Assembly (NCBI GenBank): GCA_964251965.1
Contig: CAXULQ010000005.1
Location: forward strand, 82,358 to 146,357
Source: an uncultured Sphingobacteriaceae bacterium
Lineage (GTDB): Bacteria > Bacteroidota > Bacteroidia > Sphingobacteriales > Sphingobacteriaceae
Reading direction: 5' to 3'
DNA: 64,000 nucleotides
Positions 10,191-50,632 of this stretch are shown in pieces; within the stretch, counting starts at the first letter, position 1, and every line of letters starts with the position of its first letter. The notes beneath the pieces were generated by a model that was given only the letters and a program-made list of their open reading frames with translations, did not search any database and was not told the DNA's origin. The position numbers and the translations under genes are program-made.

Positions 10191-11615
10191 ATGAAATTTT
10201 ATTCTTCTTTAAAAGAAGTCCGGGAGGATTTAAATGAAGGGCAAACTTCGGTTGTTTCTTTAGTTGAATATTATCTGGACAGAATAAACCAACATCAGAA
10301 TTTAAACGCTTTTAATGAAGTTTTTGGCGAGGAAGCATTGCGCAATGCTTCTTTTATCGACCAAAAATTAGCAAATAAAACTGCCGGACGATTAGCCGGA
10401 ATGGTAATTTGCATCAAAGACAATATCTGTTATCAAGGCCATCAGGTTACTGCTTCTTCAAAAATATTAGAAGGTTTTGTTTCTGTTTTTTCGGCAACAG
10501 TAATCGAGCGTTTGTTAGCTGAAGATGTAATTATTATTGGCCGTTGCAATTGTGATGAGTTTGCAATGGGCGGCTCTAATGAAACTTCTTATTACGGGCC
10601 TGTTAAAAATTTTAAGGATATAAAAAGAGTATCGGGCGGTTCTTCCGGCGGTGCGGCTGTGGCTGTACAGGCAGACCTTTGTTTGGCTGCTTTAGGGACA
10701 GATACCGGTGGATCAGTAAGGCAGCCAGCCTCATTTTGCGGTGTTATCGGCTTAAAACCAACTTATGGCCGCGTTTCCAGGCATGGAATTATTGCTTATG
10801 CTTCTTCTTTTGATCAGGTTGGGCCAATTACCAGGTCGATAGAAGATGCTGCATTACTTTTGGAAATCATAGCCGGAAAGGATGATTATGATAGTACTTC
10901 CGCGTTAAATCCTGTCCCTCAATATTCTGCTGCCAAAAAAAGTACCGATAAAAAAAGCATTGCTTATATCCAGGAGATATTGGAAAGTGATGGCGTTGAC
11001 CAGGAAATTAAAAACCTGATGCAAATCAAAATTAAGCAATTGCAGGCAGACGGGCATGTAGTAGAACCGGTATCGTTTGCTTATTTGGATTACGTCGTCC
11101 CAACTTATTATATATTAACTACTGCGGAAGCATCTTCTAACCTTTCCAGATATGATGGTGTGCATTATGGTTACAGAAGCGCCAATGCAACCGATGCGGA
11201 AACCACTTATACCAAAACCCGTACAGAAGGTTTTGGCGAAGAAGTAAAACGCCGCATTATGCTAGGTACTTTTGTACTTAGTTCTGGCTATTACGACGCC
11301 TATTATGCAAAAGCGCAAAAAGTACGAAGGTTGATTAAAGATAAAACCAACGAAATATTAAGTAAGTATAATTTTATCCTTACGCCAACAACACCCACGG
11401 CTGCTTTTAACATTGGGGAAATTGTTAAAGATCCGATTGTAATGTACCTGGAGGATATTTTTACAGTACAAGCGGCATTGGCGGGTGTTCCGGCAATTTC
11501 TCTTCCGGTAGGCAACAATGCCCAAAATATGCCGTTAGGATTGCAATTGCTCGCTCCGGCTTTTGCCGAAGAGGATTTGTTAAATTTTTCAGCTTATTTT
11601 TTAAATCTTGCTTAA
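10191..11615 (+). CDS. gatA: Asp/Glu-tRNA amidotransferase subunit A
   Basis: Amidase signature GGSSGGAAVAV, 474 aa. Confidence 0.92.
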   Translation: MKFYSSLKEVREDLNEGQTSVVSLVEYYLDRINQHQNLNAFNEVFGEEALRNASFIDQKLANKTAGRLAGMVICIKDNICYQGHQVTASSKILEGFVSVFSATVIERLLAEDVIIIGRCNCDEFAMGGSNETSYYGPVKNFKDIKRVSGGSSGGAAVAVQADLCLAALGTDTGGSVRQPASFCGVIGLKPTYGRVSRHGIIAYASSFDQVGPITRSIEDAALLLEIIAGKDDYDSTSALNPVPQYSAAKKSTDKKSIAYIQEILESDGVDQEIKNLMQIKIKQLQADGHVVEPVSFAYLDYVVPTYYILTTAEASSNLSRYDGVHYGYRSANATDAETTYTKTRTEGFGEEVKRRIMLGTFVLSSGYYDAYYAKAQKVRRLIKDKTNEILSKYNFILTPTTPTAAFNIGEIVKDPIVMYLEDIFTVQAALAGVPAISLPVGNNAQNMPLGLQLLAPAFAEEDLLNFSAYFLNLA

Positions 11616-11646: not shown

Positions 11647-13086
11647 ATGAAGAAATACTTTCTACTAATTGCCTGTATAATTAGTTCTAATTTGGGGTTT
11701 GCCCAAAATAATAAAGCAGACACCACATCAGGTTCAGGCTTAAAAGCAAAGCAAGTTGTTAATTTATCTTCTTCTGCTAAAACAACAAAAACTATTCCAT
11801 ATGTTTTAAGAACAGATACTTTAGTGCCGGTTCCGGTTGTTGATGAGCTTTTACTGACCTCTTATCAGAACATGGTGTACAAATTCCGGTTAGATTCTAT
11901 ACAAAAGCAAATCCCTTTGGCCTATAACGAGTACGTTCAAAGTTATATTGATATTTACACGGCTCCAAAGAGAAAAGCTTCGATGGCCAAAATTATAGGC
12001 TTGGCCAAATATTACTTCCCAATTTATGAAAAAGCTTTTCGGGAAGCAGGTATGCCCGAAGAACTTAAATTTTTATCCGTAGTAGAATCTGCTTTAGACC
12101 CAAACGCAGTTTCTAGGGTTGGGGCAACCGGTCCTTGGCAGTTTATGTTTGCAACTGCCAGGCTTTACGGTTTAAAAATGGATAATTATGTTGATGAACG
12201 TAAAGACCCAATCCAAGCGAGTTACGCTACCGCCAGATATTTAAAGGACGCTTATAATGATTTTGGTGACTGGCTGCTGGCCATTGCTTCCTATAATTGC
12301 GGCAAGGGAAATGTAATGAGGGCGATGCAAAGATCTGGAGGGAATGATTTTTGGTCAATCCGCAACTACTTGCCGGCAGAAACGCGTGGTTATGTTCCGG
12401 CTTTTATTGCTATAAGTTATGTGATGAACTTTTATAAAAAGCATCAGATTGTACCCGAAGAATGTAATTTTTCTATCAAAACAGACACGGTGCTGGTTAA
12501 TAAATTTGTATCGCTAAACAACATTTCTAAAGCTTTGGATATAGAACTTTCGGAAATGGCTATCCTCAATCCATCTTACAAAAAACGTATTGTTAATGGT
12601 ACTGCCGCCAAACCTAAACGCCTGATTATTCCAACAACTGCTTATGCTGATTTTGGGAATGTTTATGCCGCGCTGAATGATTCGGAAGAAGATACACCGA
12701 CAGCAACATTTGCTATAGATCATGATAATCAATCTAACGAAGTAACAACCCGTTACCACCGCGTTAAAAGGGGAGAAAGTTTATCGGCAATAGCAGACCG
12801 TTTTGGTGTGGAAGTGCAGGATTTAAAAGTATGGAACCATTTACATTCTGGTGCTGTTGTTCCCGGAGAAAAACTGCTTATAAAAACAGCATCAGGAACA
12901 GAAATTGCTTCTCCCGAAAAAAAATCACTAAAAAGTTACTATACTTACAGGGTTAAAAAAGGAGATACCTTAAACCTGATTGCAGATAAATACGAAGGTG
13001 TTACCGTACGAAGTATCAAAAATTTAAATACATTAAGAAGCAACCATTTACGTGCCGGCATGATGCTTAAAATCAACCATAGTTGA
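11647..13086 (+). CDS. membrane-bound lytic transglycosylase (SLT domain) with two LysM domains
   Basis: Signal peptide MKKYFLLIACIISS, SLT motif VESALDPNAVSRVGATGPWQF, and two C-terminal LysM repeats (YHRVKRGESLSAIA, YRVKKGDTLNLIA). I place the start at ATG 11647 rather than the track's 11608. Confidence 0.8.
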   Translation: MKKYFLLIACIISSNLGFAQNNKADTTSGSGLKAKQVVNLSSSAKTTKTIPYVLRTDTLVPVPVVDELLLTSYQNMVYKFRLDSIQKQIPLAYNEYVQSYIDIYTAPKRKASMAKIIGLAKYYFPIYEKAFREAGMPEELKFLSVVESALDPNAVSRVGATGPWQFMFATARLYGLKMDNYVDERKDPIQASYATARYLKDAYNDFGDWLLAIASYNCGKGNVMRAMQRSGGNDFWSIRNYLPAETRGYVPAFIAISYVMNFYKKHQIVPEECNFSIKTDTVLVNKFVSLNNISKALDIELSEMAILNPSYKKRIVNGTAAKPKRLIIPTTAYADFGNVYAALNDSEEDTPTATFAIDHDNQSNEVTTRYHRVKRGESLSAIADRFGVEVQDLKVWNHLHSGAVVPGEKLLIKTASGTEIASPEKKSLKSYYTYRVKKGDTLNLIADKYEGVTVRSIKNLNTLRSNHLRAGMMLKINHS

Positions 13087-15467: not shown

Positions 15468-15479
15468 TAAAAACAGCAT
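15466..15479 (-). repeat. abundant-oligomer copy, ACAG variant (gataaaaacagcat), overlaps maeB stop
   Basis: agagTGAtaaaaacagcatttgc, 40 nt upstream of ruvA. Confidence 0.55.
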
Positions 15480-22100: not shown

Positions 22101-23182
22101 CAATTCCGGATTTGCGCATAGAACTAAGTGCATTCCGTACCCGCAACTTAAACTATCAAACCAACTTTAAATATTCGCCAATAACCAATGATATCGAAAA
22201 TTTAAGTCCGATTACTTCGGGAGATTACAGTATTTCTTATTTTACTTTGCCTACGGCTTTTTCTAAAACATCAGGTATAAACAACACTTCATCTGTTTTT
22301 CAAAAGTTTTTAGACGATCGTAGCATAGTTTCCCAAAGGCTTGGAAGGCAAAACCCGAACTCAGCCAGAACTGTAACCAATGGTTTTGCTGATGGTTATA
22401 GCGCCAACGACCAGGATGTATTGGTGCCTGCATTTTTAGCTGCCTATTCTGGTAAAAATGCCAGCACTATCGGTACGTCCAGTTTCCCTAATATCCCAAT
22501 TCCCAATTGGCAAATTACTTATAACGGATTAAGCAAAATACCTTTTTTAGCAGATATTTTTGATTCTTTTGATTTTCGGCATGGTTACCGTTCTGCTTAT
22601 AGTGTAAATGGATTTAACACTTTGCTCCGTTATTCCGAAGCCAACGGTGCTGTTAATGTCCGCGATGCCAACAATGATTTTTTACCTTTTTACCAGTATT
22701 CGCAAATCACCATTTTTGAACAGTTTGTGCCTTTACTTGGTTTTGATGCCCGTTTTAAAAACAGCATGACCGGTACTTTTGAATACCGTAAAAGCAGGAC
22801 ACTTAGTTTAAGTTTGCTAAACAGTCAGTTAACGCAGCAAAATGAAAACAATATAGTATTCGGTTTTGGTTATCACACTAATAAATTCCGTTTTCCTTTT
22901 GGGTTGTTCAGTAACCTCCAACTTAAAAACGATATGACCTTTAAACTTGATTTTGCCCTAACGGATAATAAAACAGTGATTTATCGGCCAGACGTACAGG
23001 AAGCAGATATTTCATCAGGTGCAAAAAATATAACAGTGCGGCCTTCTATCAATTATGTCATCAATCAGCGGTTTAATATGCAGTTGTTTTACGATTCTAA
23101 CATCACCAAGCCTTACACATCACAATCTTTTAACACAGCTTTTACCAATTTTGGTGTTAATTTGAAGTTGCTTTTTCAGTAA
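16127..23182 (+). CDS. sprA: type IX secretion system / gliding motility protein SprA
   Basis: 2351 aa with a signal peptide and a huge beta-rich outer-membrane protein ending in an aromatic C-terminus (LKLLFQ). Size and composition match SprA of Bacteroidota. Start uncertain (GTG 16127 or ATG 16148). Confidence 0.85.
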   Translation: MKLFTRTMMCGAYCIIAFCYSIKVYAQQASAGSGKNDTVKIKSPIVDQQSRNQQLRQGFVLPDPPNLVKTVEYDPATNSYILSERVGNFLYRPQRYLTYSEYLRLKQNNEIKENWKQLSDKYAKDSQQPGFIPQIKIRSKTFEQIFGSDVIDIRPQGSAEAIFAGQINKNENPLFNTRQRNQGSFNFDQRIQMNVTGSIGDRLKISTSYNTEAQFQFENQLKLDYTGKPDQIIQKIEAGTVSMPLPTSLISGSQALFGVKTKLQFGKLNVTSIFSQQQSQSRQITISNGSQQGNFNLSPADYEANRHYFLSQYFRNNYNKALANIPIISSNVTITKIEVWVTNRSNTTKDSRDILAFLDLGEYSPYNTSVVRGGPGFSALPAGFQGPGFTQQSNNLLQNLPANARLTNSNDVANYFQSSGRTDNYGKLTYARKLTSTEFILHPQLGYISLNYPLNNDEVLAVAYRYTNNGVEYQVGEFSTDIPVDPNMPKVLYTKLLKNELLKTSLPTWDLMMKNIYTLGAYQISPNDFKLTIARLDDKSSIEKPIMGEGQKTTGKLWIQLTGLDNLNQQSAKQPDGYFDFLEGITIDSQNGRITFPVIEPFGADLAKQFNPVTEQDLISRYVYQSLYDSTKTIAQQFFPQLNRYIIRGTYSSQSGSEFQLNAINIPQGSVVVTAGTLRLTEGSDYTVDYNIGRIRIINQALLTSGQPINIKLESNELYGIQQKSLYGSRFDYKLSNKLNLGGTIMHLTEQPITQKISIGDESISNTIYGFDGTYSSSSRLLTRLVDKLPFISTKAPSTVSFSGEFAQLLPGHPAALNFAGSNGTAYLDDFENSSSLIDIKSAVNWQLSGTPQLFPESQLNDNLSYGYNRARLAFYNIDPIFYDRANSQAPPLPDSRNELSNHFVREVLEQEVFPYKQSVTGQPLSLPTLDLAFYPKVRGPYNFATSGINNDGTLQNPQSRWGGIFRKMDSNDFESLNVQYIEFWVLDPFIYKPTSPGGDLYFNLGSISEDILKDGRKSLENGLPADGDVSKVDTTAWGRVPKLQPVVQSFDNDPSARALQDVGLDGMADADERQKYAPFIQQIHSVLNSTAYSQINNDPSSDNYLYFRGGQYDEANAGILRRYSQYNGTEGNSKTTEQSKAQLGLDNSASTSLPDGEDVNRDNNMSQADEYFQYKVSIRPQDMVVGKNFIADKVTSQVKLTNGNTQAVTWYQFRVPINGYQSKVGNIEDFKAIRFIRMFMTNFADTAILRFARLQLIRGEWRAFNTENSTTNIIADPAIVNPSLDNSTIDVSTVNIEENGNRTPIPYVVPPGITRQRDFNNYTTNTLLNEQSLQTTVKNLRDGYSKATFKTFNNDLRQYKELDMFIHAEGAQLQNGDVSAFIRLGVDYIDNYYEYEIPLQITPATTRDPDAIWPASNKLALQLSVLTRAKTARNNAMLNGAPWPLNLPFTFTDGANKVTIKGQPDLSRLKTIMLGVRNPYKGNSPPGKDDGLDKSAIVWFDELRLTNFKEQGGWAATGRFNAKLADLGDVSIAGSKSTIGFGTLDSRISDRSLSDNQSVDVSANMELGKFFPAKSGIKIPVYVNYSNQKITPEYDPASPDIDLKSELAQVSKAKKDSIINVVEDYTVRKSFNLTNIHKAKTAPNAKSHIWDVENLSATYVYTEYEHHDFITENAFQKTYIVGLNYIYNNQPKFYSPFQKIIKSNLLKLFKDFNFSILPSRLNFSINLNRFYSENTLRNNDPENFIAIPTTYNKNFLISRVYGIGWNLSKSLQMDFDATNLGVIDEPAGRINGLKQDTLWNNLKKLGRTTNYTHTINFNYTTPINKIPGLDWTNMTMRYSTQFNWNSQAQFSLNNPAFDVGNTIQNSRTIQLNPVLNFIGLYNKIPILKKANEADQGGLGNLLLHIITSVKNISGTYTRTEGTFLPGYLPKTKFFGEDLNYNAPGIGFLLGSQADIRSRAISNGWISTDTLQNQLFTKTLNEDLRLRGVLEPIPDLRIELSAFRTRNLNYQTNFKYSPITNDIENLSPITSGDYSISYFTLPTAFSKTSGINNTSSVFQKFLDDRSIVSQRLGRQNPNSARTVTNGFADGYSANDQDVLVPAFLAAYSGKNASTIGTSSFPNIPIPNWQITYNGLSKIPFLADIFDSFDFRHGYRSAYSVNGFNTLLRYSEANGAVNVRDANNDFLPFYQYSQITIFEQFVPLLGFDARFKNSMTGTFEYRKSRTLSLSLLNSQLTQQNENNIVFGFGYHTNKFRFPFGLFSNLQLKNDMTFKLDFALTDNKTVIYRPDVQEADISSGAKNITVRPSINYVINQRFNMQLFYDSNITKPYTSQSFNTAFTNFGVNLKLLFQ

Positions 23183-23193
23183 TACCAGTTTTT

Positions 23194-23245
23194 ATGGTAT
23201 AAAAAAAGCATGCCTGATTATTACCAAACATGCTTCTTTTACCAT
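23194..23245. terminator. bidirectional hairpin from two inverted motif copies
   Basis: atggtataaaaaaagcatg (23194-23212) and catgcttcttttaccat (23229-23245) are imperfectly complementary. Lies between convergent sprA and the OMP gene. Confidence 0.5.
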
Positions 23246-23255
23246 AGAAAATTAC

Positions 23256-24922: not shown

Positions 24923-24936
24923 GATAAAAGAAGCAT
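24923..24936 (-). repeat. abundant-oligomer copy (gataaaagaagcat), spacer upstream of feoA
   Basis: Exact 14/14 core; gttgataaaagaagcatc resembles the arm at 227-244. Confidence 0.6.
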
Positions 24937-25243: not shown

Positions 25244-27361
25244 TTGAAGGCTGATTTAAAAGTTGCATTAATAGGGAACCCAAATACCGGCAAATCCACG
25301 CTTTTTAATGTTTTAACCGGCCTTAACCAAAAAGTAGGCAACTTCCCCGGTGTTACGGTTGATAAAAAAACCGGTTTTTCTTTGTTAAACGATGGCCGCC
25401 GCGCCCAAATCATCGATCTTCCCGGAACTTACAGTTTATATCCGAAAAGTAAAGACGAGTCTATCGTTTTTTCTGTTCTGGCCGATCATTTCAACCCGCA
25501 CTATCCTGATCTGGTGATCGTTATCCTTGATGCTTCTAATTTAAAACGGAACCTGTTGCTTTACACGCAGGTTGCCGATTTAAAAATCCCGGTTATTTTG
25601 GCTTTGAACATGATGGATTTGGCCTCTAAATCCGGCTTAAACATCAACATTAATTTGCTTTCAAAAAAATTAGGGGTTCCCGTTGTGCCGATTTCTGCCC
25701 GCAAAGCCGAAGGAATTGATGTGCTAAAAGAAGCAATCGGTTATGCCAATAAATTTGCTTTGCAGGAAGATACGATTGATGTGGAACAATTAGCGCCGGA
25801 ACTGATCAGCAGCATCCGCGAAGAAATCAACGTAGAAAATAATTATTACGCTTTGCAACTGGCGCACCAGCACGAATATTTGCCGTTTTTATCGCCGCAG
25901 CAAAACGACCGGATTGAAACTTTGGAGGAGGAGCACAGCTTTCATTCGCAAAAATCTCAGGCTACAGAAACCATTGCGCGTTATAATTTTATAAACGATG
26001 TGCTTTTTGATGTGGTTACCCGAAAAGATCATTTTGCGGAAGAAGAAAGTTACAGCAACAAAATCGACCGGGTTCTCACCCACAAAATCTTCGGTTTCGT
26101 TATTTTCTTCGCCGTCCTGATGTTCATCTTTCAGGCAATTTTCTCCTGGTCGGCTTACCCGATGACGCTGGTTGAAAATCTGTTTACCTGGTTAACTTCC
26201 ACACTTCACGGCATACTTCCGGCCGGCCCGCTAACCAGTTTATTGTTGGATGGTGTAATTGCCGGGTTAAGCGGCGTGCTGGTTTTTATCCCGCAGATCG
26301 CTATTTTGTTTGCTTTTATTTCGATTTTGGAAGATACCGGTTACATGTCCCGCATTACGTTTATGATGGACCGCATTATGCGTAAAGTCGGTTTAAACGG
26401 AAAATCGGTTGTGCCGCTGATTGGCGGTTTTGCCTGCGCCGTGCCTTCCATCATGAGCACACGCACCATCGAAAACTGGAAAGACCGCATGATCACCATC
26501 ATGGTTACGCCGCTGATTACCTGTTCTGCACGTTTGCCGGTTTACACTTTGCTCATTTCGCTCGTTGTTCCTAATCGAAACATTTGGTGGCTTTTTAATT
26601 TACAAGGTTTGGCCATGATGGCGATGTACTTGTTCAGCGTAGTTTCCGCAGTGGTGGTTGCGTTTGTTTTTAAGCTGATTTTAAAAAGCCGCGAACGTGG
26701 TTATTTCATCATGGAACTGCCCGTTTACCGGATGCCGCGCTGGAAAAACGTAGGTTTAACGATGTACGAACGGTCAAAAACTTTTGTGATCCAGGCGGGG
26801 AAAGTTATCATTGCCGTTTCAATAATTTTATGGGTAATGGAATCGTACGGGCCGGGAAAACGGATGGAACAGATCGAGCAGAAATACAGCAATGCTTCTT
26901 TTACGGCACAAAAATCAGCAACGGAATTAGAACGTTTAAAAGCTACCGAAAAAAAAGAAAATTCCTACGCAGGTATTTTAGGCCACGTGATCGAGCCGGC
27001 AATCCGCCCTTTAGGTTTTGATTGGAAAATTGGCATCGCCTTGATAACTTCCATTGCTGCACGCGAGGTTTTTGTGGGAACGATGGCCACCATTTACAGT
27101 GTTGACGGCAATGCCGATAAACTGGATTCGGTTTTAGACAAGATGAAACACGCTAAAAATCCTGAAACCGGTTTGCCGGTTTTTACCTTCGCCGTCGCCA
27201 TGTCGCTCATGATGTTTTACGCCTTTGCCATGCAATGCGCCAGCACGGTTGCCGTGGTTTATCGGGAAACCAAAGAGTGGAAATGGCCGGTTATTCAGTT
27301 TGCTTACATGACGGTTTTGGCTTATGCCGCAAGTTTTATAACTTTCCACTTGTTAAAATAA
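25244..27361 (+). CDS. feoB: ferrous iron transporter FeoB
   Basis: N-terminal GTPase G1 GNPNTGKST, G4 NMMD, and a C-terminal polytopic membrane domain. 705 aa, TTG start in track. Confidence 0.92.
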   Translation: MKADLKVALIGNPNTGKSTLFNVLTGLNQKVGNFPGVTVDKKTGFSLLNDGRRAQIIDLPGTYSLYPKSKDESIVFSVLADHFNPHYPDLVIVILDASNLKRNLLLYTQVADLKIPVILALNMMDLASKSGLNININLLSKKLGVPVVPISARKAEGIDVLKEAIGYANKFALQEDTIDVEQLAPELISSIREEINVENNYYALQLAHQHEYLPFLSPQQNDRIETLEEEHSFHSQKSQATETIARYNFINDVLFDVVTRKDHFAEEESYSNKIDRVLTHKIFGFVIFFAVLMFIFQAIFSWSAYPMTLVENLFTWLTSTLHGILPAGPLTSLLLDGVIAGLSGVLVFIPQIAILFAFISILEDTGYMSRITFMMDRIMRKVGLNGKSVVPLIGGFACAVPSIMSTRTIENWKDRMITIMVTPLITCSARLPVYTLLISLVVPNRNIWWLFNLQGLAMMAMYLFSVVSAVVVAFVFKLILKSRERGYFIMELPVYRMPRWKNVGLTMYERSKTFVIQAGKVIIAVSIILWVMESYGPGKRMEQIEQKYSNASFTAQKSATELERLKATEKKENSYAGILGHVIEPAIRPLGFDWKIGIALITSIAAREVFVGTMATIYSVDGNADKLDSVLDKMKHAKNPETGLPVFTFAVAMSLMMFYAFAMQCASTVAVVYRETKEWKWPVIQFAYMTVLAYAASFITFHLLK

Positions 27362-27376: not shown

Positions 27377-27991
27377 GTGGATAAAAAGGAAATCCTGAAG
27401 AATTACATGCCCGAAGCAGCCGCTTCGGTGATTGCCAAATGGATAGATTATTTTCAGTGCGAATTTAAAGTTTCCCGCAACCGCGGAACCAAATTTGGCG
27501 ATTACCGCTCGCCTTTTGGCGGAAAAGGGCACCGCATTTCTGTTAATTTCGACCTCAATTCTTACGCTTTCCTGGTAACTACGGTGCACGAATTTGCGCA
27601 TTTATATACTTGGAACCAGCATCAGCATAAAGCAAAACCACACGGTGCCGAATGGAAAACCAACTTTAAAAGAATGATGAAACCATTTTTTGAGCTGGGG
27701 ATTTTTCCTGCAGATGTAAACCTTGCCATCCGTAATTATCTGGATAATCCCGCAGCTTCCAGCTGTTCTGATCTCACTTTGTTTCGCGCCCTTAAAAAAT
27801 ATGACGTAAAAGAAGCATCTGTTATTTCCGTAGAAAAAATCCCGGCAAACGGTTTGTTTAGATGGAAAGACGGACGCGTTTTCCGCAGAGAAGAACGTTT
27901 GCGAAAGCGTTATCGCTGTGTAGAAGTGAGCACGAATCGGGTTTATTTGTTTAATCCTGTTGCAGAAGTAGAACTACTGGATAATTACTAA
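27377..27991 (+). CDS. SprT-like zinc metalloprotease domain protein
   Basis: HEFAH zinc-binding motif in a roughly 200-aa protein. Confidence 0.6.
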   Translation: MDKKEILKNYMPEAAASVIAKWIDYFQCEFKVSRNRGTKFGDYRSPFGGKGHRISVNFDLNSYAFLVTTVHEFAHLYTWNQHQHKAKPHGAEWKTNFKRMMKPFFELGIFPADVNLAIRNYLDNPAASSCSDLTLFRALKKYDVKEASVISVEKIPANGLFRWKDGRVFRREERLRKRYRCVEVSTNRVYLFNPVAEVELLDNY

Positions 27992-28863: not shown

Positions 28864-29409
28864 TTACATATCCAGCAAACTCAAATCAAATTTCGGCGGA
28901 ATGATATAACGCAGCTGCACCAAACCACTGGAGTAAGATTTATGGTTGATCAGCATTAAATCAATTTTATTTTCAGAGGCTGAAAAGAGGGTTTTTCCTC
29001 CGCCCAAAATTAAGGGATGTACAGAAACCAAAAACTCATCCACTAAATTTTCTGCCATAAAAGAAGCAACCAAATCTGCACCGCCAAACAGCCAAATGTT
29101 CCGGCCTTCCTGTTCCCGAAATTGCTGAACAAAAGCTACAAAATCAGCTTTGCGGATGATGTTAACAGCCAAATGCTCATCCTGCAAAAGTGTATCCGAA
29201 AAAACGTAAATAGCATGATTTTCAAAAAAACCAAGTCCTGTTTGTGCAATCAGCTCGTAACTTTTTCTGCCCATAAACAAAGCATCGGTATCTTCGGAAA
29301 ACTCGGTTAAACCGTAATCCTGGTCGTTTAAACACCAGTCAATTTCGCCGTTTAGCCCTTCAATAAAACCATCTAAAGTTGTGGCAATGTTTAATGTGAT
29401 TTTGCGCAT
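28864..29409 (-). CDS. dihydrofolate-reductase-like (RibD C-terminal domain) protein
   Basis: 181 aa with MRKITLNIATTLDGFI, LFGGADL and ILGGGKTLF patterns. Confidence 0.7.
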   Translation of the reverse strand: MRKITLNIATTLDGFIEGLNGEIDWCLNDQDYGLTEFSEDTDALFMGRKSYELIAQTGLGFFENHAIYVFSDTLLQDEHLAVNIIRKADFVAFVQQFREQEGRNIWLFGGADLVASFMAENLVDEFLVSVHPLILGGGKTLFSASENKIDLMLINHKSYSSGLVQLRYIIPPKFDLSLLDM

Positions 29410-30874: not shown

Positions 30875-30946
30875 GCTGTAAAATTAGGGATTTAGCTTTT
30901 AACGCAAATACTACTGCTTCGTTATAAAGTTTGCTGATTTTTAGGT

Positions 30947-30960
30947 GATAAAAACAGCAT
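30947..30960 (-). repeat. abundant-oligomer copy, ACAG variant, full extended form
   Basis: The minus strand reads gcgatgctgtttttatcacctaaaaatcagc (30963 to 30933), starting 7 nt after the M28 peptidase stop and in phase with it. Confidence 0.6.
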
Positions 30961-30967
30961 CGCTATT

Positions 30968-32545
30968 TTACTGTCCGTTTGGCTTATCCGTTTTAACATC
31001 TACAACAGGCCGTTCATCGCGGTTAGCTAAATTCCAGCCTGTATAAAATACTAATTGCGCCCGTTTCACCAGCATCGGGAAATTGATTTTGCTTACTTCA
31101 TCGCCCGGGCGATGATAATCCGGGTTTTCGCCATCAAAATAAAAAATAATTGGCACGCCGTGTTTTGCAAAATTGTAATGGTCTGAACGGTAGTAAAAAC
31201 GGTTCGGATCATTCGGATCATCGTATTTATAATCCAAATCCAGTTTTGTGTAAGTTGAATTTACTTCCTCGGTAACTTTACGCAAAGTGGTGCTTAACAT
31301 GGCAGAACCAATCACATAAAGGTAATTTGATGAATCAGCTTTGCCAATGTAATCATAACCAGTGCGGCCGATCATATCAATATTTAAATCAGTTATAGTT
31401 TTCTCCAACGGAAAAACCGGATGATCAGTATAATATTCTGATCCCAGCAAACCTTTTTCTTCGCCCACATTTCCTAAAAACAAAATACTGCGGCGTGGAC
31501 CGTGGCCTTCTTTTTTTGCTTGTGTAAACGCACGTGCAATCTCTAAGATTCCGGTTGTACCCGAGCCATCATCATCTGCACCGTTGTTTACTTTATCTGT
31601 TCCGGTTGTTGTTAAGCCGATATGATCGTAATGTGCAGAAAATACCAGGATTTCGTCTTTTAATTTTGGGTCTGAGCCTGGCAAAAAGCCAACCACATCA
31701 ACTGCTTTTGCCGGTTTGCTTTCTGAATGATAACTTAATACGAAATCTGCTTTTAAAATTTTTGCTGGTACGTTTCCTGCTGCAGATGCTTCTTTTAGTA
31801 CATCAAATGTTTGGCCTGAAGCTTTTACCAATTGATCTGCAACAGCTAAATCAACATTTATAACAGGGGCTTGTTGCTGTGTAGGAGCTGCATTTTCTTT
31901 TTTGAGTGCGATACTGCTGCCTGTAAAGCTCGAACCGGAACGTTTAAGCACATCGGTAATTCCGGCGTTAGCAGCCAAAATAACAGCTGGATATTTACTT
32001 TGCAGTTCTCTTACAATTTTAGATCTGGCTGCACTTATGCGATAACTGGTGTTGGTAGTTGTGCCGGTTCCGGGTTTATCTTCGTTTATCCAGACTAAAA
32101 TTTTGCCCGTTATGTCGGCAGTTCCGATTTCTTCCGGAGTTCCATAACCAATAAAAACTACCTCGCTGGCTTTTGTATTTGTATTGGCAAAAGTTCCACG
32201 CATTAAAAAATCTTTACCGTTTTCGAAAGGCTGATTATTTACGCTGAAGGCAGTTACTTTTAAACTCTTTTCTTCCAACGGAACATCTAAAAAATAAGAA
32301 CCATTAACCGGCCCTTGCAAGCCCAGTTTTTTAAATTCCCCTGCAATATAATTGGCGGCTTTTTCTGCACCGGGTTTTCCGGTTTCGCGGCCTTCAAAAG
32401 CATCGGAAGCAATGATGCTGAGGTGTTTTTTGGCATCATCAACCGTAATGTAGCCAGCATATTTTTGCTGGATCGGATCAGGTTTTTGTGCCTGTGCAAC
32501 ACTTAAAACTGCAACCGGAAGTAAGTATAATAAAGTCTTTTTCAT
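30968..32545 (-). CDS. M28-family aminopeptidase with PA domain
   Basis: Signal peptide plus zinc-ligand regions SAHYDHIG, GADDDGSGTTG, GEEKGLLGS and HRPGD. Confidence 0.85.
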   Translation of the reverse strand: MKKTLLYLLPVAVLSVAQAQKPDPIQQKYAGYITVDDAKKHLSIIASDAFEGRETGKPGAEKAANYIAGEFKKLGLQGPVNGSYFLDVPLEEKSLKVTAFSVNNQPFENGKDFLMRGTFANTNTKASEVVFIGYGTPEEIGTADITGKILVWINEDKPGTGTTTNTSYRISAARSKIVRELQSKYPAVILAANAGITDVLKRSGSSFTGSSIALKKENAAPTQQQAPVINVDLAVADQLVKASGQTFDVLKEASAAGNVPAKILKADFVLSYHSESKPAKAVDVVGFLPGSDPKLKDEILVFSAHYDHIGLTTTGTDKVNNGADDDGSGTTGILEIARAFTQAKKEGHGPRRSILFLGNVGEEKGLLGSEYYTDHPVFPLEKTITDLNIDMIGRTGYDYIGKADSSNYLYVIGSAMLSTTLRKVTEEVNSTYTKLDLDYKYDDPNDPNRFYYRSDHYNFAKHGVPIIFYFDGENPDYHRPGDEVSKINFPMLVKRAQLVFYTGWNLANRDERPVVDVKTDKPNGQ

Positions 32546-32557: not shown

Positions 32558-32980
32558 TTAGCAAGAAATTTTGTTGACGCGGTTTGCATGCCGGCCGCCT
32601 TCAAATTCCGTATTTAAAAAAGTAGTGGTAATTTCCTGTGCTTCTTTTATCGATATAAATCTGGCAGGAAGGCAAAGTATGTTAGCGTTATTGTGTTTTC
32701 GGGCGAGTTCTGCCAGTTCTGTATTCCAGCAAATGGCAGCACGAATTCCCTGATGTTTATTTGCAGTGATTGCGATACCATTTCCGCTGCCACAAATCAA
32801 AATGCCTAAGTCGAATTCTTTATTTTCTACCGCAAAAGCAACCGGATGGGCAAAATCAGGATAATCAACAGAAGCGGTAGAATACGTGCCAAAGTCTTTT
32901 AGTTGATGTTCAGTTAAGAATGAACATAGCACATCTTTCAATTCAAATCCGGCATGGTCTGCACCGATTGCTATTTTCAT
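32558..32980 (-). CDS. rpiB: ribose-5-phosphate isomerase B
   Basis: MKIAIGADHAG, ICGSGNGI, 140 aa. Confidence 0.9.
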   Translation of the reverse strand: MKIAIGADHAGFELKDVLCSFLTEHQLKDFGTYSTASVDYPDFAHPVAFAVENKEFDLGILICGSGNGIAITANKHQGIRAAICWNTELAELARKHNNANILCLPARFISIKEAQEITTTFLNTEFEGGRHANRVNKISC

Positions 32981-38707: not shown

Positions 38708-38721
38708 TGTAAAAGAAGCAT
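38708..38721 (-). repeat. abundant-oligomer copy (tgtaaaagaagcat), spacer
   Basis: ggctgtaaaagaagcatcgg; its ggctgtaaaa part is complementary to ttttacagcc at 38804-38813. Confidence 0.55.
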
Positions 38722-39982: not shown

Positions 39983-40753
39983 ATGCAATTAGTAAAAGCC
40001 AAAAAACATTTAGGCCAGCATTTTTTAACTGATAAAAACATTGCTGCCAAAATTGTAAACAGTTTAAATTCGAAAGGAAAAGTGCTGGAAGTTGGTCCAG
40101 GAATGGGCATTTTATCCGATTTTTTATTGGAAAAACCCGAACTGGATGTTCATTTAATTGATATTGATACCGAATCTTACCAGTTTTTACAGAAAAAATA
40201 TCCGCAATTAGGTCAAAAATTAATCAATGCAGATTTTTTGGAGATGGATTTTGATGCTGTTTTTACCGGTACTTTTTCCATCATCGGCAACTTCCCTTAC
40301 AATATTTCTTCGCAGATTTTATTTAAAGTGCTGGATAATCGCCATAAAGTTCCGGAAGTAGTTGGAATGTTCCAGAAAGAAGTTGCCGAACGCTGCGCCG
40401 CCAAACCCGGAAGCAAAACTTACGGTATTTTAAGCGTTTTTTTGCAGGCTTATTACAAAGTAGAATATTTATTCACGGTGAAAGCAGGCGTTTTTAATCC
40501 GCCGCCAAAAGTGCTTTCGGGCGTGATGCGCCTCAGCAGAAATGAAATTAAGGAATTGGGCTGTGATGAAAAACTGTTCTGGCAGGTTGTAAAAGCAGGT
40601 TTCAATCAGCGAAGAAAAACGCTGCGGAATGCACTTTCTTCGCTCATCAATAAAGAAAAAATGACGGAAGAACCGATGCTGGATTTGCGCGCGGAAAGAT
40701 TGAGTGTTGAGGACTTTGTGCGGTTGACGAATATGATTGAGGAGAATAAGTGA
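39983..40753 (+). CDS. rsmA: 16S rRNA (adenine1518/1519-N6)-dimethyltransferase
   Basis: LGQHFL, VLEVGPGMG, GNFPYNISS. I place the start at ATG 39983 rather than TTG 39962. Confidence 0.9.
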   Translation: MQLVKAKKHLGQHFLTDKNIAAKIVNSLNSKGKVLEVGPGMGILSDFLLEKPELDVHLIDIDTESYQFLQKKYPQLGQKLINADFLEMDFDAVFTGTFSIIGNFPYNISSQILFKVLDNRHKVPEVVGMFQKEVAERCAAKPGSKTYGILSVFLQAYYKVEYLFTVKAGVFNPPPKVLSGVMRLSRNEIKELGCDEKLFWQVVKAGFNQRRKTLRNALSSLINKEKMTEEPMLDLRAERLSVEDFVRLTNMIEENK

Positions 40754-41223: not shown

Positions 41224-42174
41224 GTGTCCATTACAACTCCAGATAAAAAAATATTAATAGTTGATGATTTCCACCCAGCCTTCGCCCAAGCTGCCGAAAA
41301 ATTAGGTTATACCTGCACCATCGATGCTTCTTTTACCCGGGAAAAAACGTTAAGCGTAATTGCAGATTACGAAGGTTTGGCGATTAGAACCAAGTTTCAG
41401 GTTGATAAAGAAATGATCGATGCCGCGCCAAAACTCCAATTCATCGCGCGCGCCGGTGCCGGAATGGATAACATCGATGAAATTTATGCCGATAAAAGAA
41501 GCATCGCCTGCATCAACGCACCCGAAGGAAACAGCGATGCCGTTGGCGAACATGCCGTTGGTTTGCTGCTTTCGCTGATGAATAATTTTAGAAAGGCAGA
41601 TATCGAAATCCGCAACGGCAAATGGGACCGCGAAGGTAACCGCGGCTACGAACTAAAAGGTAAAACGGTTGGCATTGTGGGTTACGGGCACATGGGCAAA
41701 AGCTTCGCCCAAAAACTAAGCAGTTTTGGCGTGGAAGTGATTGCTTACGATAAATATAAAACAGGTTTTTCCGATAAGTTTGCACGCGAAGTAAGCATGG
41801 AAGAAATTGTACGATTAAGTAACGTAGTCAGTTTTCATATTCCGCTCACGCCGGAAACGAAAGGAATGGTTGATGATGAATACTTGTTCCATTTCCGCAA
41901 ACCGATATTTCTGTTGAATACAGCTCGCGGAGAAATCGCCAAAGTGCAGGCAATTTTAAACGGGATCAAAAGCGGCAAAATTTTGGGTGCAGGTTTGGAT
42001 GTGTTGGAGACAGAAAAGTTTCCGGCATTAGGCGGACAAAGCTGGTTTGAGGAACTGAAAAACAATGGCCGCGTACAACTTACGCCGCATATTGCCGGCT
42101 GGACGTTTGATTCGTACCGGAAAATAAGCGAAGTATTGGCCGAAAAACTGAAAAATTTGGAGTTTAAGGTTTAA
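41224..42174 (+). CDS. D-isomer-specific 2-hydroxyacid dehydrogenase (phosphoglycerate dehydrogenase-like)
   Basis: NAD-binding GIVGYGHMG, and catalytic-region motifs NTARG and TPHIAG. Confidence 0.8.
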   Translation: MSITTPDKKILIVDDFHPAFAQAAEKLGYTCTIDASFTREKTLSVIADYEGLAIRTKFQVDKEMIDAAPKLQFIARAGAGMDNIDEIYADKRSIACINAPEGNSDAVGEHAVGLLLSLMNNFRKADIEIRNGKWDREGNRGYELKGKTVGIVGYGHMGKSFAQKLSSFGVEVIAYDKYKTGFSDKFAREVSMEEIVRLSNVVSFHIPLTPETKGMVDDEYLFHFRKPIFLLNTARGEIAKVQAILNGIKSGKILGAGLDVLETEKFPALGGQSWFEELKNNGRVQLTPHIAGWTFDSYRKISEVLAEKLKNLEFKV

Positions 42175-43499: not shown

Positions 43500-43547
43500 A
43501 AAAAAAGTGCTGTAAAAAAAGCATACTTCTTTTACAGCACTTTTTTT
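43500..43547. terminator. perfect bidirectional terminator carrying back-to-back motif halves
   Basis: aaaaaagtgctgtaaaa / ttttacagcactttttt is a 17-bp perfect stem flanked by A-run and T-run. The loop region reads gtaaaaaaagcat+atacttcttttac. Overlaps the last 5 codons of ruvC. Confidence 0.85.
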
Positions 43548-44173: not shown

Positions 44174-45145
44174 TTGGCCCGCATTGCCCGTAAAACGCTC
44201 ACCTACCTGTTAAAAATTGGTATTTTATTGCTTACCATCTGGTTTGTTTACCGGCACGTTAACCATAATAAAAACCTGGGGCAATTTGTAAACCGCATCC
44301 AAAAAATCGGGGAAACGCAGGTTTATACGGCTTTAATTTCAGTTACGGTTTTGATGTTTTTAAATTGGGTTTTAGAAGCCGTTAAATGGAAATACCTAAC
44401 CAAGCTGCTCGAAAAAATGAGTTTATGGAAAGCTATCGAAGCTGTTTTTTGCGGGTTAACCATGGCCATCATCACCCCAAACCGCGTCGGCGAGTATGGC
44501 GGCCGCATTTTATACCTTCCCCCGCGAAAACGTATCCACGGTATTTTTGCCATGGCTGTTGGCTCTTTTGGGCAGAATACGGTTACCAATGTGGTTGGCA
44601 CGTTGTCGTTGCTGTACTTTATTTACACTTATCAGCAGCTTAACTTTTGGCTTTCTTTTGGGGCAACTTTGCTCGGTGCTGTTTTTATCACTGTTTTTTT
44701 GCTGTTTTATTTCCGCATCCGCTGGCTGGTTTTTTTGCTGGATAAAGTTCGCTTCCTTCAAAAATACCACCGCTTTTTTAGTATTATGGCGAAGTACAGT
44801 TTTCCGCAGCTTTGTTCGGTTATGCTATTGAGTTTGGCGCGGTTTGCTGTTTTTTCTTCTCAATATTATATTTTGATCCATATTTTATTGCCCGATTTAA
44901 AGCTGGTTCCGGTGATGATGATGGTTTTTAACCTGTTTTTTATCCAATCCGCCATTCCATCTCTGGATTTGCTGGACATTGGCGTACGCAACTTTATCGC
45001 CAATTATCTGTTCGGTTTTATCACCACACAATCGGTTGCCATTATGGCTTGTGTTTCGTGCATTTGGTTAATTAATTTGATTATTCCTGCGGTGATTGGA
45101 TCAGTTTTCGTACTCAAACTTAATTTCTTTGGCAACAATACTTAG
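44174..45145 (+). CDS. UPF0104 / lysylphosphatidylglycerol-synthase-TM-region-like (flippase-like) membrane protein
   Basis: About 8 hydrophobic helices. The track ORF begins at 43925 inside antisense ruvC. I place the start at in-frame TTG 44174 (LARIARKTLTYLLKIG); the start is uncertain. Confidence 0.55.
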   Translation: MARIARKTLTYLLKIGILLLTIWFVYRHVNHNKNLGQFVNRIQKIGETQVYTALISVTVLMFLNWVLEAVKWKYLTKLLEKMSLWKAIEAVFCGLTMAIITPNRVGEYGGRILYLPPRKRIHGIFAMAVGSFGQNTVTNVVGTLSLLYFIYTYQQLNFWLSFGATLLGAVFITVFLLFYFRIRWLVFLLDKVRFLQKYHRFFSIMAKYSFPQLCSVMLLSLARFAVFSSQYYILIHILLPDLKLVPVMMMVFNLFFIQSAIPSLDLLDIGVRNFIANYLFGFITTQSVAIMACVSCIWLINLIIPAVIGSVFVLKLNFFGNNT

Positions 45146-46262
45146 TTCGGCAGCAGTTTTATTTACCGTTTTATACGTCATGCTTTTTGTGTTTTTGATC
45201 AAAGGATGGCTCAGCATCAAACAAAGTTTTGGGGCGATAAAAACAGCATATCAAACCAAAGTAACCGTATTGATTGCGGCGCGGAACGAAGAAACCGGAA
45301 TCCACAAAACCATCGAAGATATTTTGGCGCAGCAATATCCGAAACATTTGCTGGAAGTGATAATTGCAGATGACCATTCGACCGACCGCACGGCCGAGAT
45401 TATTTTAAGTTATGCTGAACGTGGCATCAAATTGCTTCAATTAAAAGAGGAACGCGCTTTAAATTCCTACAAAAAGAAAGCCATAAGCGAAGCGATACGT
45501 TTATCCACCGGCGATTTAATGGTTGCCACCGATGCCGATTGCCGCATGGGCTCGCACTGGCTCGAAGCGGTGGTTGCCCGTTTTGAAGAAAGCGACGTAT
45601 TGATGTTATCCTCGCCGGTTGCTTTTTTTGAAGATAAAAACCTGTTCGAAAGTTTACAGGCACTGGAGTTTTCGGCTTTTATCGGTTTGGGCGCGGCAAC
45701 TATCGGAAACAAAAAAGCCTCCACCTGCAACGGCGCAAATTTAGCCTATAAAAAGAGTGTTTTTAACGAAGTTGGCGGTTTTAAAGGGATTGATGACCTG
45801 GCCTCCGGCGATGACGAACTGCTGCTGCAAAAAATAGCTGCAAAATATCCTGGCAGGATCGGTTTTTTAAAACAACGGGAAGCCATCGTTTACACGCACG
45901 CCAAGCCAACCTGGGAAGAATTTAAGCAGCAACGACGTCGCTGGGCATCTAAATCGGTGAAATATAAGGACAAATCTATCGTGGCATTGTCAGTTGGTTT
46001 CTGGCTCTTCAACCTCCTCGTTCTGGTTAATTTTGTGGCGGGTATTTTCGATCTATACTATTTGAAAATTGCTTTGTTACAACTGTTATTTAAAATAACT
46101 GCCGAAGGAATTTTCCTTTTGCTGGTTGCTGCATTTTTTAAACGGCGTAAATTGCTGTTTTTATTGCCTTTAGGTTCTTTACTACACATTTTTTATGTGG
46201 TTTATATCGGCGTAATCGGCAACAAAGGTGTTTATGAGTGGAAAGGCAGAAAAGTACACTAA
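45096..46262 (+). CDS. family-2 glycosyltransferase with flanking TM helices
   Basis: KVTVLIAARNEE, IIADDHSTD, TDADC and QRRRW motifs. Start uncertain (TTG 45096 overlaps the previous gene by 50 nt; ATG 45180 is the alternative). Confidence 0.8.
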   Translation: MDQFSYSNLISLATILSSAAVLFTVLYVMLFVFLIKGWLSIKQSFGAIKTAYQTKVTVLIAARNEETGIHKTIEDILAQQYPKHLLEVIIADDHSTDRTAEIILSYAERGIKLLQLKEERALNSYKKKAISEAIRLSTGDLMVATDADCRMGSHWLEAVVARFEESDVLMLSSPVAFFEDKNLFESLQALEFSAFIGLGAATIGNKKASTCNGANLAYKKSVFNEVGGFKGIDDLASGDDELLLQKIAAKYPGRIGFLKQREAIVYTHAKPTWEEFKQQRRRWASKSVKYKDKSIVALSVGFWLFNLLVLVNFVAGIFDLYYLKIALLQLLFKITAEGIFLLLVAAFFKRRKLLFLLPLGSLLHIFYVVYIGVIGNKGVYEWKGRKVH

Positions 46263-48821: not shown

Positions 48822-48835
48822 GGTAAAAACAGCAT
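48822..48835 (-). repeat. abundant-oligomer copy, ACAG variant (ggtaaaaacagcat), spacer
   Basis: Lies 15 nt after the phosphatase stop and 20 nt before rnhB. The minus strand reads atgctgtttttaccgcttaaaaatt. Confidence 0.55.
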
Positions 48836-48854: not shown

Positions 48855-49499
48855 ATGTTAATAATGAACGAAAAGCCAGCACTTTTACCGCGCTATCAGC
48901 ATACTTTATTGGAAGCCGGTTGTGATGAAGCAGGCCGTGGTTGTTTGGCCGGACCTGTGTTTGCCGCTGCCGTTATTTTACCGACTGATTTTAATCATCC
49001 TGAATTGAACGATTCCAAGCAATTGGATGAACCAACGCGCAATCAGCTTCGGCAGGAAATCGAAAAGTGTGCTTTGTCTTACGCCGTAGCTTCGGTTGAT
49101 AATTTGGAGATCGATCAAATCAACATCCTGCAAGCTTCTATTTTGGCCATGCACCGCGCTATTGCAATGCTTCTTTTACCGCCTGAATTTTTGATTATCG
49201 ATGGCAATTATTTCAAAAAATACCAGTCGCTTAACCACGCCTGCATTGTAAAAGGCGACGGCAAATATTACAGCATCGCGGCGGCTTCAATCCTGGCAAA
49301 AACTTACCGCGATGATTATATGAAAAAGATCGCCGAAGAACATCCAGAATATCTTTGGCATCAAAACAAAGGTTATCCAACTATTAAGCATCGAAACACG
49401 ATTTTAGAAAAAGGCTTTACGCCTTATCACCGGCTAACTTTTCGGGTTCGCGGTCCGCTTTCAGACGGTTTAAAAAGCACTGCCGTTCCCATCGGTTGA
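48855..49499 (+). CDS. rnhB: ribonuclease HII
   Basis: [19 protein letters not shown] and GYP motifs. Confidence 0.92.
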
Positions 49500-49552: not shown

Positions 49553-50632
49553 ATGAAAACTACTGCCCTTACCAATGTTCATATAAAAACAGGCGCCAAA
49601 ATGGTTCCGTTTGCTGGTTACAATATGCCGGTTACCTACGCTGGAATTAATGCCGAGCACGAAACCGTGCGTAAAGCTGTCGGTGTTTTTGATGTGAGCC
49701 ACATGGGCGAATTTATTTTGAAAGGCGAAAAAGCTTTGGATCTCATCCAAAAAGTAACCACCAACGATGCCTCCAAACTGTACGACGGCAAAGTGCAATA
49801 TTCTTGTTTGCCCAACGAAACCGGAGGCATTGTAGATGATTTATTAGTTTACCGCATGGACGAGAAAACCTACATGCTGGTGGTCAACGCTTCTAATATC
49901 GAGAAAGACTGGAACTGGATTTCCCGTTTTAATGATTTTGGGGTGGAGATGAAAAACATTTCCGACCGTACTTCGCTGCTGGCCGTGCAAGGCCCGAAAG
50001 CTGCCGAAGCCTTGCAAAGCTTAACCGATGTTGACCTCGCTTCTATGGAATATTATACCTTTAAAAGAAGCATTTTCGCCGGGATAAAAAATGTAATTAT
50101 CTCTGCCACAGGTTATACCGGTGCCGGCGGTTTTGAACTTTATTTTGATCACGAAAATTCAGAACATATCTGGAATGCCATTTTTGAAGCCGGCGAACCT
50201 TTCGGTATCAAGCCGATTGGTCTGGCTGCGCGCGATACTTTGCGCCTGGAAATGGGTTTTTGTTTGTACGGAAACGATATCGACGATACCACTTCTCCGC
50301 TGGAGGCCGGTTTGGGCTGGGTAACCAAATTCAGCAAAAACTTCGTCAATTCCGAAGCTTTGAAACAGCAGAAAGAAACTGGCATCAGCAAAAAACTGAT
50401 TGGTTTTGAAATGTTAGAAAGAGGAATTCCGCGCCATGATTATGAAATTGTAGATGAAGCAGGAAACACGATTGGCAAAGTAACTTCCGGTACGCAATCG
50501 CCATCGCTGCAAAAAGCCGTTGGTTTGGGTTATGTTAAAAATGCTTTTGCCAAAGACGGAACCGAAATTTACATCAAAATCCGCGATCAAAAAATCAAAG
50601 CGAAAGCGGTGAAGCCGCCTTTTTACAAATAA
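49553..50632 (+). CDS. gcvT: glycine cleavage system aminomethyltransferase T
   Basis: [19 protein letters not shown], 359 aa from ATG 49553. The track start 49496 overlaps rnhB. Confidence 0.92.

Follow-up and report, generated by a model that had tools for sequence, protein, structure and literature searches.

DNA uptake (self-recognition) sequences are known only in the Neisseriaceae and the Pasteurellaceae (bioRxiv 10.1101/2025.10.24.684340). In Haemophilus influenzae the uptake signal sequence (USS) combines a 9-bp core, AAGTGCGGT, with flanking A/T tracts, and in the Neisseriaceae the DNA uptake sequence (DUS) is GCCGTCTGAA with its dialects, the receptor being ComP. Such sequences leave signatures in coding DNA, namely raised frequencies of the motif tripeptides, a bias in reading frame and a preference for poorly conserved residues (Findlay and Redfield 2009, PMC2817400), and inverted pairs at gene 3' ends have been described as well (bioRxiv 10.1101/2025.10.24.684340). 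Here we analyse a motif with the core ATGCT(TC/GT)TTTTA that recurs in genes and spacers of a 64,000-nucleotide stretch (contig CAXULQ010000005.1, positions 82,358 to 146,357; hereafter the window) from an uncultured Sphingobacteriaceae bacterium. An earlier note on this DNA had aligned four copies of about 31 nt, three of them in frame in the unrelated genes gatA, feoB and thrB and one in a spacer, and had argued that proteins accommodate a DNA-level element.

Our comparisons show that the motif is clade-specific and strand-symmetric, that it occurs about once per 1.1-2 kb, and that it is under nucleotide-level constraint or drive. Judged from its sequence, it is a motif with the genomic behaviour of an uptake sequence, but of unrelated sequence and in a new phylum. 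It has the density of uptake sequences, their occurrence in both orientations, their intergenic enrichment, their restriction to a clade, their substitution into permissive frames and their inflation of tripeptides. As in the Pasteurellaceae, a short strict core is followed by A/T-rich tracts within an extended consensus of about 30 bp, copies lie about one per kb on both strands and are shared among related species (PMC2817400, PMC1852404); inverted pairs, which in the Pasteurellaceae occur in terminators, here form hairpins at gene ends; many copies are genic, keep to preferred frames and poorly conserved residues, and roughly double the motif tripeptides (PMC2817400). Unlike the USS, the motif belongs to Bacteroidota rather than Proteobacteria, is unrelated in sequence, has a 12-nt core in two dinucleotide forms, and is only a putative uptake sequence. 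As with the Neisseriaceae DUS, there is lineage-specific 'dialect' behaviour, the ratio of TC to GT forms varying among clade members, together with a sizeable fraction of copies between genes, inverted repeats at the ends of genes and a limitation to close relatives; unlike the DUS, the motif is found in a minority of the window's terminator-like hairpins, and no ComP-type pilin is expected.

Three other kinds of repeat invite comparison. The HIP1 motif of cyanobacteria (GCGATCGC) is hyper-abundant and under selection independent of codon usage, and its function is still open (PMC5861425). Like HIP1, our motif is short and hyper-abundant in coding and non-coding DNA, but HIP1 is an 8-bp palindrome found phylum-wide, whereas ours is non-palindromic, has 12 nt with an A/T tract beside them, and is confined to one small clade. 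Polar motifs such as Chi and KOPS/AIMS, with 5-8 nt and a strand skew, differ from a 12-nt core with equal strand counts in 64 kb. Repetitive extragenic palindromic sequences (REP/REPIN) are hairpins outside genes, and Rickettsia palindromic elements lengthen proteins by 30-50 inserted residues. Our motif resembles REP/REPIN and miniature inverted-repeat transposable element (MITE) families in that relatives have inverted motif pairs within an intergenic unit that is itself repeated, and it resembles the Rickettsia elements in that proteins tolerate a DNA-level repeat. It differs from REP/REPIN and MITE families in that most window copies are genic, the seven coding sites compared show no insertion and the single motif is not palindromic, and from the Rickettsia elements in that there is no in-frame insertion, protein lengths are unchanged and the one loop that might suggest an insert, in a permease, is present in all homologues.

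Abundance and distribution of the motif

The 12-nt core is followed by yC and by an A/T tract at +18 to +24, where the first A of the core is position 0. The aligned window copies give the extended consensus r-ATGCT(TC/GT)TTTTA-yC-nnnn-W-AAAA-W-T, in which the C at +13 is well kept and positions +18 to +24 are A or T only, mostly A-rich and in some copies T-rich. In its general form, ATGCTKYTTTTA, the core occurs 36 times in the window, against 0.24 expected from dinucleotide-preserving shuffles, an enrichment of about 150-fold. These 36 comprise 20 TC, 12 GT, 4 TT and no GC forms, and the commonest 12-mers of the window are ATGCTTCTTTTA (20 copies) and ATGCTGTTTTTA (12 copies). An 18-mer with at most 3 mismatches allowed gives 13 window matches, against 0.04 by chance. 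One-mismatch variants are nearly confined to positions 0 (A to G or T), 2 (G to A), 5 (T to C) and 6 (C to T), and core positions 3-4 and 7-11 are practically never changed.

With tolerated variants the window holds 56 copies, or 1 per 1.1 kb, with 28 on each strand, a count that covers the 64 kb of the window only. Spacing is approximately Poisson; a regular spacing was rejected because the coefficient of variation, 0.81, falls within the Poisson range. Genes contain 37 of the 56 copies, and the other 19 (about a third) are intergenic or at a gene edge, in a window of which 5.8% is non-coding. Among the 32 exact TC- or GT-form cores, 22 lie inside genes and 10 in non-coding DNA. Of the window's 44 spacers, 15 have a motif copy, in either orientation relative to the neighbouring genes.

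The four 31-mers of the earlier note lie where it placed them and read as it quoted them (Table 1), and direct comparison agrees with its identities of 26/31 for gatA/feoB and 23/31 for spacer/feoB. The 'full-length' copies are thus real, in the sense of high-scoring instances of an extended consensus built on the 12-nt core. Pfam supports its gene names (GatA-type amidase, FeoB, GHMP homoserine kinase, ThrA, ThrC, OppC-like permease, M28 peptidase, GcvT and HAD), and all the further copies it listed are present (41324, 55808, 59218, 60479, 40254, 44676, 29068 on the minus strand, and 46731/46784, also minus). The window gave no matches in Rfam at gathering thresholds or in a tRNA scan, so the motif is not a known RNA family. 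A promoter reading was rejected, since the motif does not match the -33/-7 consensus of Bacteroidota and there is no enrichment of sigma-70-like hits. Searching the literature for the motif strings gave only unrelated primer matches.

Comparison of FeoB indicates that the source organism is a Mucilaginibacter of a tight, mostly uncultured clade, within which FeoB is 90-94% identical; identity to the rest of Mucilaginibacter is 75-78%. On this protein evidence it belongs to the Mucilaginibacter arboris clade, of which the cultured type strain M. arboris is a member, with 10 exact cores in 20 kb. The nine clade loci and M. arboris carry 2.7-8.6 exact cores per 10 kb, and the 71 other Mucilaginibacter loci carry 0-0.5. 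In absolute numbers, the window, the nine clade loci and M. arboris, 264 kb together, have 88 TC-form and 37 GT-form cores, and the 1.29 Mb of outgroup DNA from the 71 other loci has 1 and 3. A metagenome scan found many contigs, about 0.75 Mb from varied genomic regions, with 3-11 cores per 10 kb. The summed clade DNA (1.02 Mb) holds 592 cores, from which a whole-genome number would be an extrapolation and not a count. A scan of IMG/VR viral contigs returned three single, chance-level hits only, a result that is uninformative if the clade's phages are not in the collection. The TC:GT ratio shifts among lineages, from 17:2 and 15:2 in two loci of relatives (L002 and L051) through 20:12 in the window to about 1:1 in three others (L005-L007), and this resembles drift between 'dialects'.

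Two side observations concern these loci. Three metagenome-assembled genomes (L003, L005 and L006) are titled 'Janthinobacterium lividum'; their FeoB, ThrB and GatA are 84-95% identical to those of the window, their synteny with it is full and they have the motif, and the taxonomic labels look wrong. Some Mucilaginibacter without the motif have repeated 10-mers of their own, GTCATTGCGA/CTCGCAATGA in L064, L067, L073 and L074 and ATCTGCACAT in L038, L063 and L070, at 4-7 copies per 22 kb, perhaps as repeat families with no relation to one another.

The motif in coding sequence

Seven coding sites, including those in gatA, feoB, thrB and the permease, were compared with the outgroup. None shows an indel, protein lengths are unchanged, and between two and four substitutions, at variable or already half-matching positions, created the motif. 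In FeoB, all 10 of 10 clade genomes have KY(S/N)NASF(T/I), against an equally long KY.QPQYT in all 71 other Mucilaginibacter. In ThrB, clade EADA(V/S)FITQK, within which DAVF and DASF alternate, corresponds to DE.TA(h/k)(l/n)ITQK in other Sphingobacteriaceae, and in GatA clade NASFIDQKL corresponds to outgroup NA(k/h/q)(n/d)(I/V)D.(K/R). The SprT-like protein has VKEAS in the clade vs APKES/APKED in the outgroup, and RpiB has IKEAQ vs IEEAE. On these alignments the motif-coded residues at the seven sites are clade-specific substitutions and not inserted elements. The permease segment, which the earlier note had taken for an insert, is a hypervariable periplasmic loop present in all Mucilaginibacter homologues and hence not specific to the clade.

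What is kept within the clade is the nucleotide sequence. In feoB and in the sprT-like gene the core is the same, base for base, in 10/10 genomes despite 77-87% overall nucleotide identity. Moreover, where the amino acid is invariant across the 10 species, 14 of 16 codons inside cores are themselves invariant, vs a background of 19.9%. GCT makes up 28% of Ala codons and TCT 24% of Ser codons, and AAT GCT TCT TTT would be expected from codon usage only about 3% of the time; ASF is nevertheless coded GCTTCTTTT in 68% of clade cases vs 2% of outgroup cases, and KEA is coded AAAGAAGCA in 70% vs 8%. The tripeptides ASF, AVF, KEA and KTA are 1.7-2.5 times commoner in clade proteins. The TC and GT forms interchange at orthologous sites, with TT an occasional intermediate, and such a swap forces Ser/Val or Glu/Thr exchanges.

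The shared frame of the coding copies arises because usable frames avoid stop codons and Cys. Sense copies favour xAT GCT TCT TTT, other frames giving MLLL or Cys-containing peptides, and antisense copies shun the frame that contains TAA. The three long coding copies do share one frame, as had been claimed. The TAAAA of the spacer consensus is a stop in that frame, so coding copies have CAA, GAA or another triplet; the claim that CAA replaces TAA holds for those three copies, but other sense copies use GAA, GAT, ACT and others. Spacer copies were said to end in ACC TAA or ACC TGA, which is true of two and not of the remainder, and the phasing with the upstream gene's stop codon, which we also read in three of four cases, is not significant.

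The alignments and codon comparisons for which the earlier note had called come out on its side. The motif-bearing segments are lineage-specific substitutions at variable or half-matching residues, without indels, codon choice at the cores is far from background, and the NASF-, DAVF- and KEAS-type segments, whose conservation in distant orthologues with different codons it had named as the refuting result, are not conserved outside the clade. The evidence supports a DNA-level signal that proteins accommodate, by substitution rather than by insertion of an element; the part of the original interpretation that does not survive is the element itself, since what is seen is point substitution without change of length.

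Inverted pairs, hairpins and a repeated unit in relatives

Three inverted motif pairs fold strongly, all of them at gene 3' ends (Table 1), and the overlapping head-to-head pair looks like a bidirectional terminator. The window also holds strong terminator-like palindromes without the motif, so the organism uses ordinary intrinsic-terminator hairpins as well. The full-length spacer copy forms a weak self-hairpin of -7.9 kcal/mol, and pairing of T-run with A-tract is possible in some copies. A single-copy hairpin as a general feature was rejected, however, because a T-tract replaces the A-tract in about a fifth to a third of copies and because the TC form cannot extend the stem.

In relatives, pairs with a plus copy followed by a minus copy peak at a spacing of 80-84 nt, and many of them sit in a recurring unit, about 170-210 nt long, whose centre is conserved and whose outer inverted repeats are AGAGCCTGTTTAAA. 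This MITE-like element may contain a 22-nt insert, CAATCCTGAGCATATCGAAGGA, and a second MITE-like family in relatives has the end ...GAATTTACAGGCATAAAAGAAGCATTATAAATT. A search of the window for the element's outer repeat found none, and neither family is present there; the motif is thus independent of the unit. Within the element, the motif pair looks like internal cargo and not like a terminus.

Table 1. Motif copies, folds, motif-free palindromes and the MITE-like element (window positions unless a relative's locus is named).
Feature	Position	Strand	Form or peptide	Remarks
feoB, full-length	26889..26919	+	TC form; NASFTAQKSA	core 26892-26903, invariant in 10/10 clade genomes
gatA, full-length	10342..10372	+	TC form; NASFIDQKLA	core 10345-10356
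thrB, full-length	57769..57799	+	GT form; DAVFITQKIA	core 57772-57783
intergenic, full-length, just downstream of M28 peptidase gene	30933..30963	-	GT form	core 30949-30960; relatives have GT form, TC form or G>A variants at the orthologous site
inverted pair, hairpin at 3' end of comF-like gene	199..244	200-211 +, 233-244 -
inverted pair between convergent genes sprA and hypothetical gene	23200..23241	23200-23211 -, 23230-23241 +	minus copy TT form
overlapping head-to-head pair	43501..43546	43513-43524 -, 43523-43534 +		perfect 20-bp palindrome, A and T runs flanking
OppC-like permease gene, periplasmic loop, two antisense copies	46731-46742, 46784-46795	-	GKRSI, LKEAS	both kept across clade
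SprT-like gene, antisense	27807..27818	-	VKEAS	invariant in 10/10 genomes
tetratricopeptide repeat (TPR) protein gene, antisense	5704..5715	-	DKNSM
same TPR protein gene, two further antisense	6444-6455, 6843-6854		LKTAF, VKEAL
gatA, antisense	10949..10960	-	TT form; DKKSI
LysM/SLT transglycosylase gene, antisense	12881..12892	-	IKTAS
intergenic, abutting malic enzyme gene stop codon, upstream of ruvA	15468..15479	-		up to three motif copies in this spacer in relatives
sprA, antisense	22756..22767	-	FKNSM
intergenic, upstream of feoA	24925..24936	-
RibD_C-like gene, sense variant	29058..29069	-	TTGCTTCTTTTA; VASFM
M28 peptidase gene, antisense	31786..31797	+	LKEAS	relatives GT or TT form (LKTAS, LKKAS)
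rpiB, antisense variant	32638..32649	+	GTGCT...; IKEAQ
intergenic	38710..38721	-
rsmA, sense	40254..40265	+	DAVFT
2-hydroxyacid dehydrogenase gene, sense	41324..41335	+	DASFT
same dehydrogenase gene, antisense	41493-41504		DKRSI
406-aa open reading frame (ORF), sense variant	44676..44687	+	GTGCTGTTTTTA; GAVFI
GT2 glycosyltransferase gene, antisense	45238..45249	-	IKTAY
intergenic, after SpoIIE-type phosphatase gene	48824..48835	-
RNase HII gene, sense	49167..49178	+	MLLL	sole sense core in frame 0
gcvT, antisense	50062..50073	-	FKRSI
intergenic, 5 nt after gcvT stop codon	50637..50648	+		...ATC ACC TGA
small antitoxin-like ORF, antisense	54069..54080	+	IKEAL
intergenic, beside antitoxin-like ORF	54174-54185
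thrA, sense	55808..55819	+	TT form; DAFFI
thrA, antisense variant	56414-56425		VKEAQ
thrC, last codons, sense	59218-59229		YASFK
spacer after thrC, inverted variant	59280-59291		ATACT variant	fold with 59218-59229 not better than shuffles
HAD hydrolase gene, sense	60479..60490	+	DAVFI
intergenic, after HAD gene, between convergent genes	60620..60631	+
metH, antisense	62567..62578	+	VKEAS
intergenic variant	951..962	+	ATACT variant
further variants of the same kind	3347-3358, 32985-32996, 35368-35379	-	G>A variants
hairpin fold, 3' end of ComF-family gene	195-250			-27.4 kcal/mol, z -9.1
hairpin fold	43498-43550			-23.3 kcal/mol, z -7.9; passes terminator scan
hairpin fold	23195-23246			-13.2 kcal/mol, z -3.7
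terminator-like palindromes without motif	10132-10171, 42252-42276, 54394-54425			stems of 18, 11 and 14 bp
MITE-like element in relatives	L100:480-760 and 3210-3480; L169:1170-1440; L180:2360-2640; L002:3640-3900; L051:4690-4950			outer inverted repeats AGAGCCTGTTTAAAwTT, enclosing two inverted motif copies and a conserved 40-nt centre

Two neighbourhoods in the window deserve mention in their own right. At 53562-54171 (-) a PemK-type toxin gene is overlapped upstream by a small ORF, likely its antitoxin, with one motif copy inside the ORF (54069) and one beside it (54174). The segment 27992-28863, with a hypothetical gene (28059-28649) and a Cro/C1-type helix-turn-helix gene (28652-28858), has no motif copy. 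It is skipped by the BLAST alignments of 8 of the 9 clade loci, only L002 spanning it and L006 ending just before, and it looks like an accessory insertion.

A possible uptake role and its rivals

We put the chances at about even that the motif is a DNA uptake sequence. On this reading a component of the transformation machinery would preferentially bind motif-bearing DNA, motif-bearing DNA from the same species would enter cells and recombine at a higher rate, and mutations that create or improve a copy would in consequence be over-transmitted, a molecular drive. The motif would build up at any site where its presence is compatible with protein function or gene expression, inverted pairs could take on a second role as terminators, and in relatives a MITE-like repeat would have come to carry a motif pair. 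To our knowledge, biased uptake with homologous recombination is the sole established process that over-transmits motif-creating mutations genome-wide, coding sequence included. Natural transformation in Bacteroidota works without a pilus and depends on ComEC, DprA, ComF and several novel proteins, with four novel transformation genes reported from Riemerella (PMC8459023). As type IV pili are missing from this machinery, a receptor, if there is one, would have to be of a different type. The stronger statement, that this would be the first DNA uptake sequence outside Proteobacteria, a recently evolved 12-bp core with an A/T tract read by the pilus-independent machinery of Bacteroidota, we hold more tentatively, as somewhat short of probable. 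The window does contain a ComF-family gene (phosphoribosyltransferase plus zinc-ribbon) at 243-941 (-), which in NCBIfam scores highest against ComF and 'DNA utilization protein GntX', in neither case reaching the curated cutoff.

A number of points weigh against an uptake role. ComF-family genes are widespread and prove nothing on competence, and this one is the only competence-type gene seen. No candidate receptor has been identified, and the literature holds no report of uptake or transformation for Mucilaginibacter or Sphingobacteriaceae; it is for these two reasons that we go no higher than even chances. The core, with 12 nt and two alternative forms, is longer than the 9-10 nt of known uptake sequences (DUES), and only one strong terminator-like hairpin of the window uses the motif, a share far below that in Neisseria. 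Finally, in some relatives most copies are intergenic and many lie inside the MITE-like unit, so that transposition could account for some of the copies in those genomes.

How do the rival explanations fare with the same evidence? The copies could form an array of sites for a clade-specific chromosomal DNA-binding protein, acting in nucleoid organisation, segregation, repair or self-marking, with each site selected for itself and without any relation to uptake. Abundance, lineage restriction and nucleotide-level conservation would fit any sequence-specific reader, the A/T tract beside the core suggests a bendable protein-binding site, and HIP1, 15-300-fold over-represented with no known uptake role, provides a precedent (PMC5861425). 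However, if each site were selected separately, that selection would need to override amino-acid changes at thousands of positions, and this sits poorly with near-Poisson spacing; the proteome bears exactly the marks that have been reported for uptake sequences. We also know of no chromosomal system with a 12-nt non-palindromic site at about one per kb and no strand polarity; Chi and KOPS have 5-8 nt and are polar. An array of this kind is unlikely, though far from negligible. We consider it quite improbable that the motif is a terminal or internal repeat of a MITE- or REPIN-like mobile element, read by a transposase or recombinase, with solo copies as remnants. The 80-84 nt pair spacing, the many pairs within the repeated unit bounded by AGAGCCTGTTTAAA and the dominance of intergenic copies in those relatives' contigs speak for such an element and explain part of these copies. 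On the other hand, 22 of 32 exact cores and 37 of 56 relaxed copies in the window are inside genes, the seven coding sites arose by substitution without indel, copies are kept at orthologous positions in up to 10 species, and the window has its 56 copies without the outer repeat; nor is the single motif palindromic, no target duplications were seen, and within the unit the pair is internal rather than terminal.

Explanations without a reader do worse. A clade-specific mutation or mismatch-repair bias, comparable to very-short-patch repair, might turn near-matches into the motif; copies did arise where the sequence already resembled it (ITQK in ThrB, IEEA in RpiB), and the tolerated variants are mostly transitions. 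Yet known repair biases act on contexts of 4-5 nt and their enrichments are modest, not the roughly 150-fold seen for a 12-mer with a flanking A/T tract. Nor does such a bias account for a core that exists in discrete TC and GT forms but lacks a GC form, or for the pairing of inverted copies where genes end, and we regard it as very improbable. That the motif is a by-product of conserved peptides and codon bias, or of chance in T-rich sequence, is refuted by the tests run and can practically be set aside. It is true that TTT, AAA and GAA are preferred codons and that the 3' half of the motif is partly ancestral protein sequence (ITQK in ThrB, ID.K in GatA), but the motif peptides are absent from orthologues outside the clade, GCT and TCT are minority codons of their families and nevertheless prevail in ASF, a third of the copies are non-coding, antisense copies encode unrelated peptides, and shuffles yield a fraction of one copy.

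For the two proteobacterial families in which sequence-specific uptake is known, its origin is debated, as is the question whether the sequences are selected or a by-product of uptake bias. A young, clade-confined motif with motif-free sister species in the same genus offers an on/off contrast for these questions, and if the uptake reading is true, the recent origin would give a natural comparison of genomes with and without the motif for finding the receptor, in a phylum whose uptake machinery differs from the known ones and is largely uncharted. The cultured member M. arboris makes the uptake hypothesis directly testable. Even if the motif does not serve uptake, a 12-mer that re-codes proteins about once per kilobase marks a strong sequence-specific process. 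More practically, the motif could improve the genetic transformation of these bacteria and could flag contigs of the clade in metagenomes.

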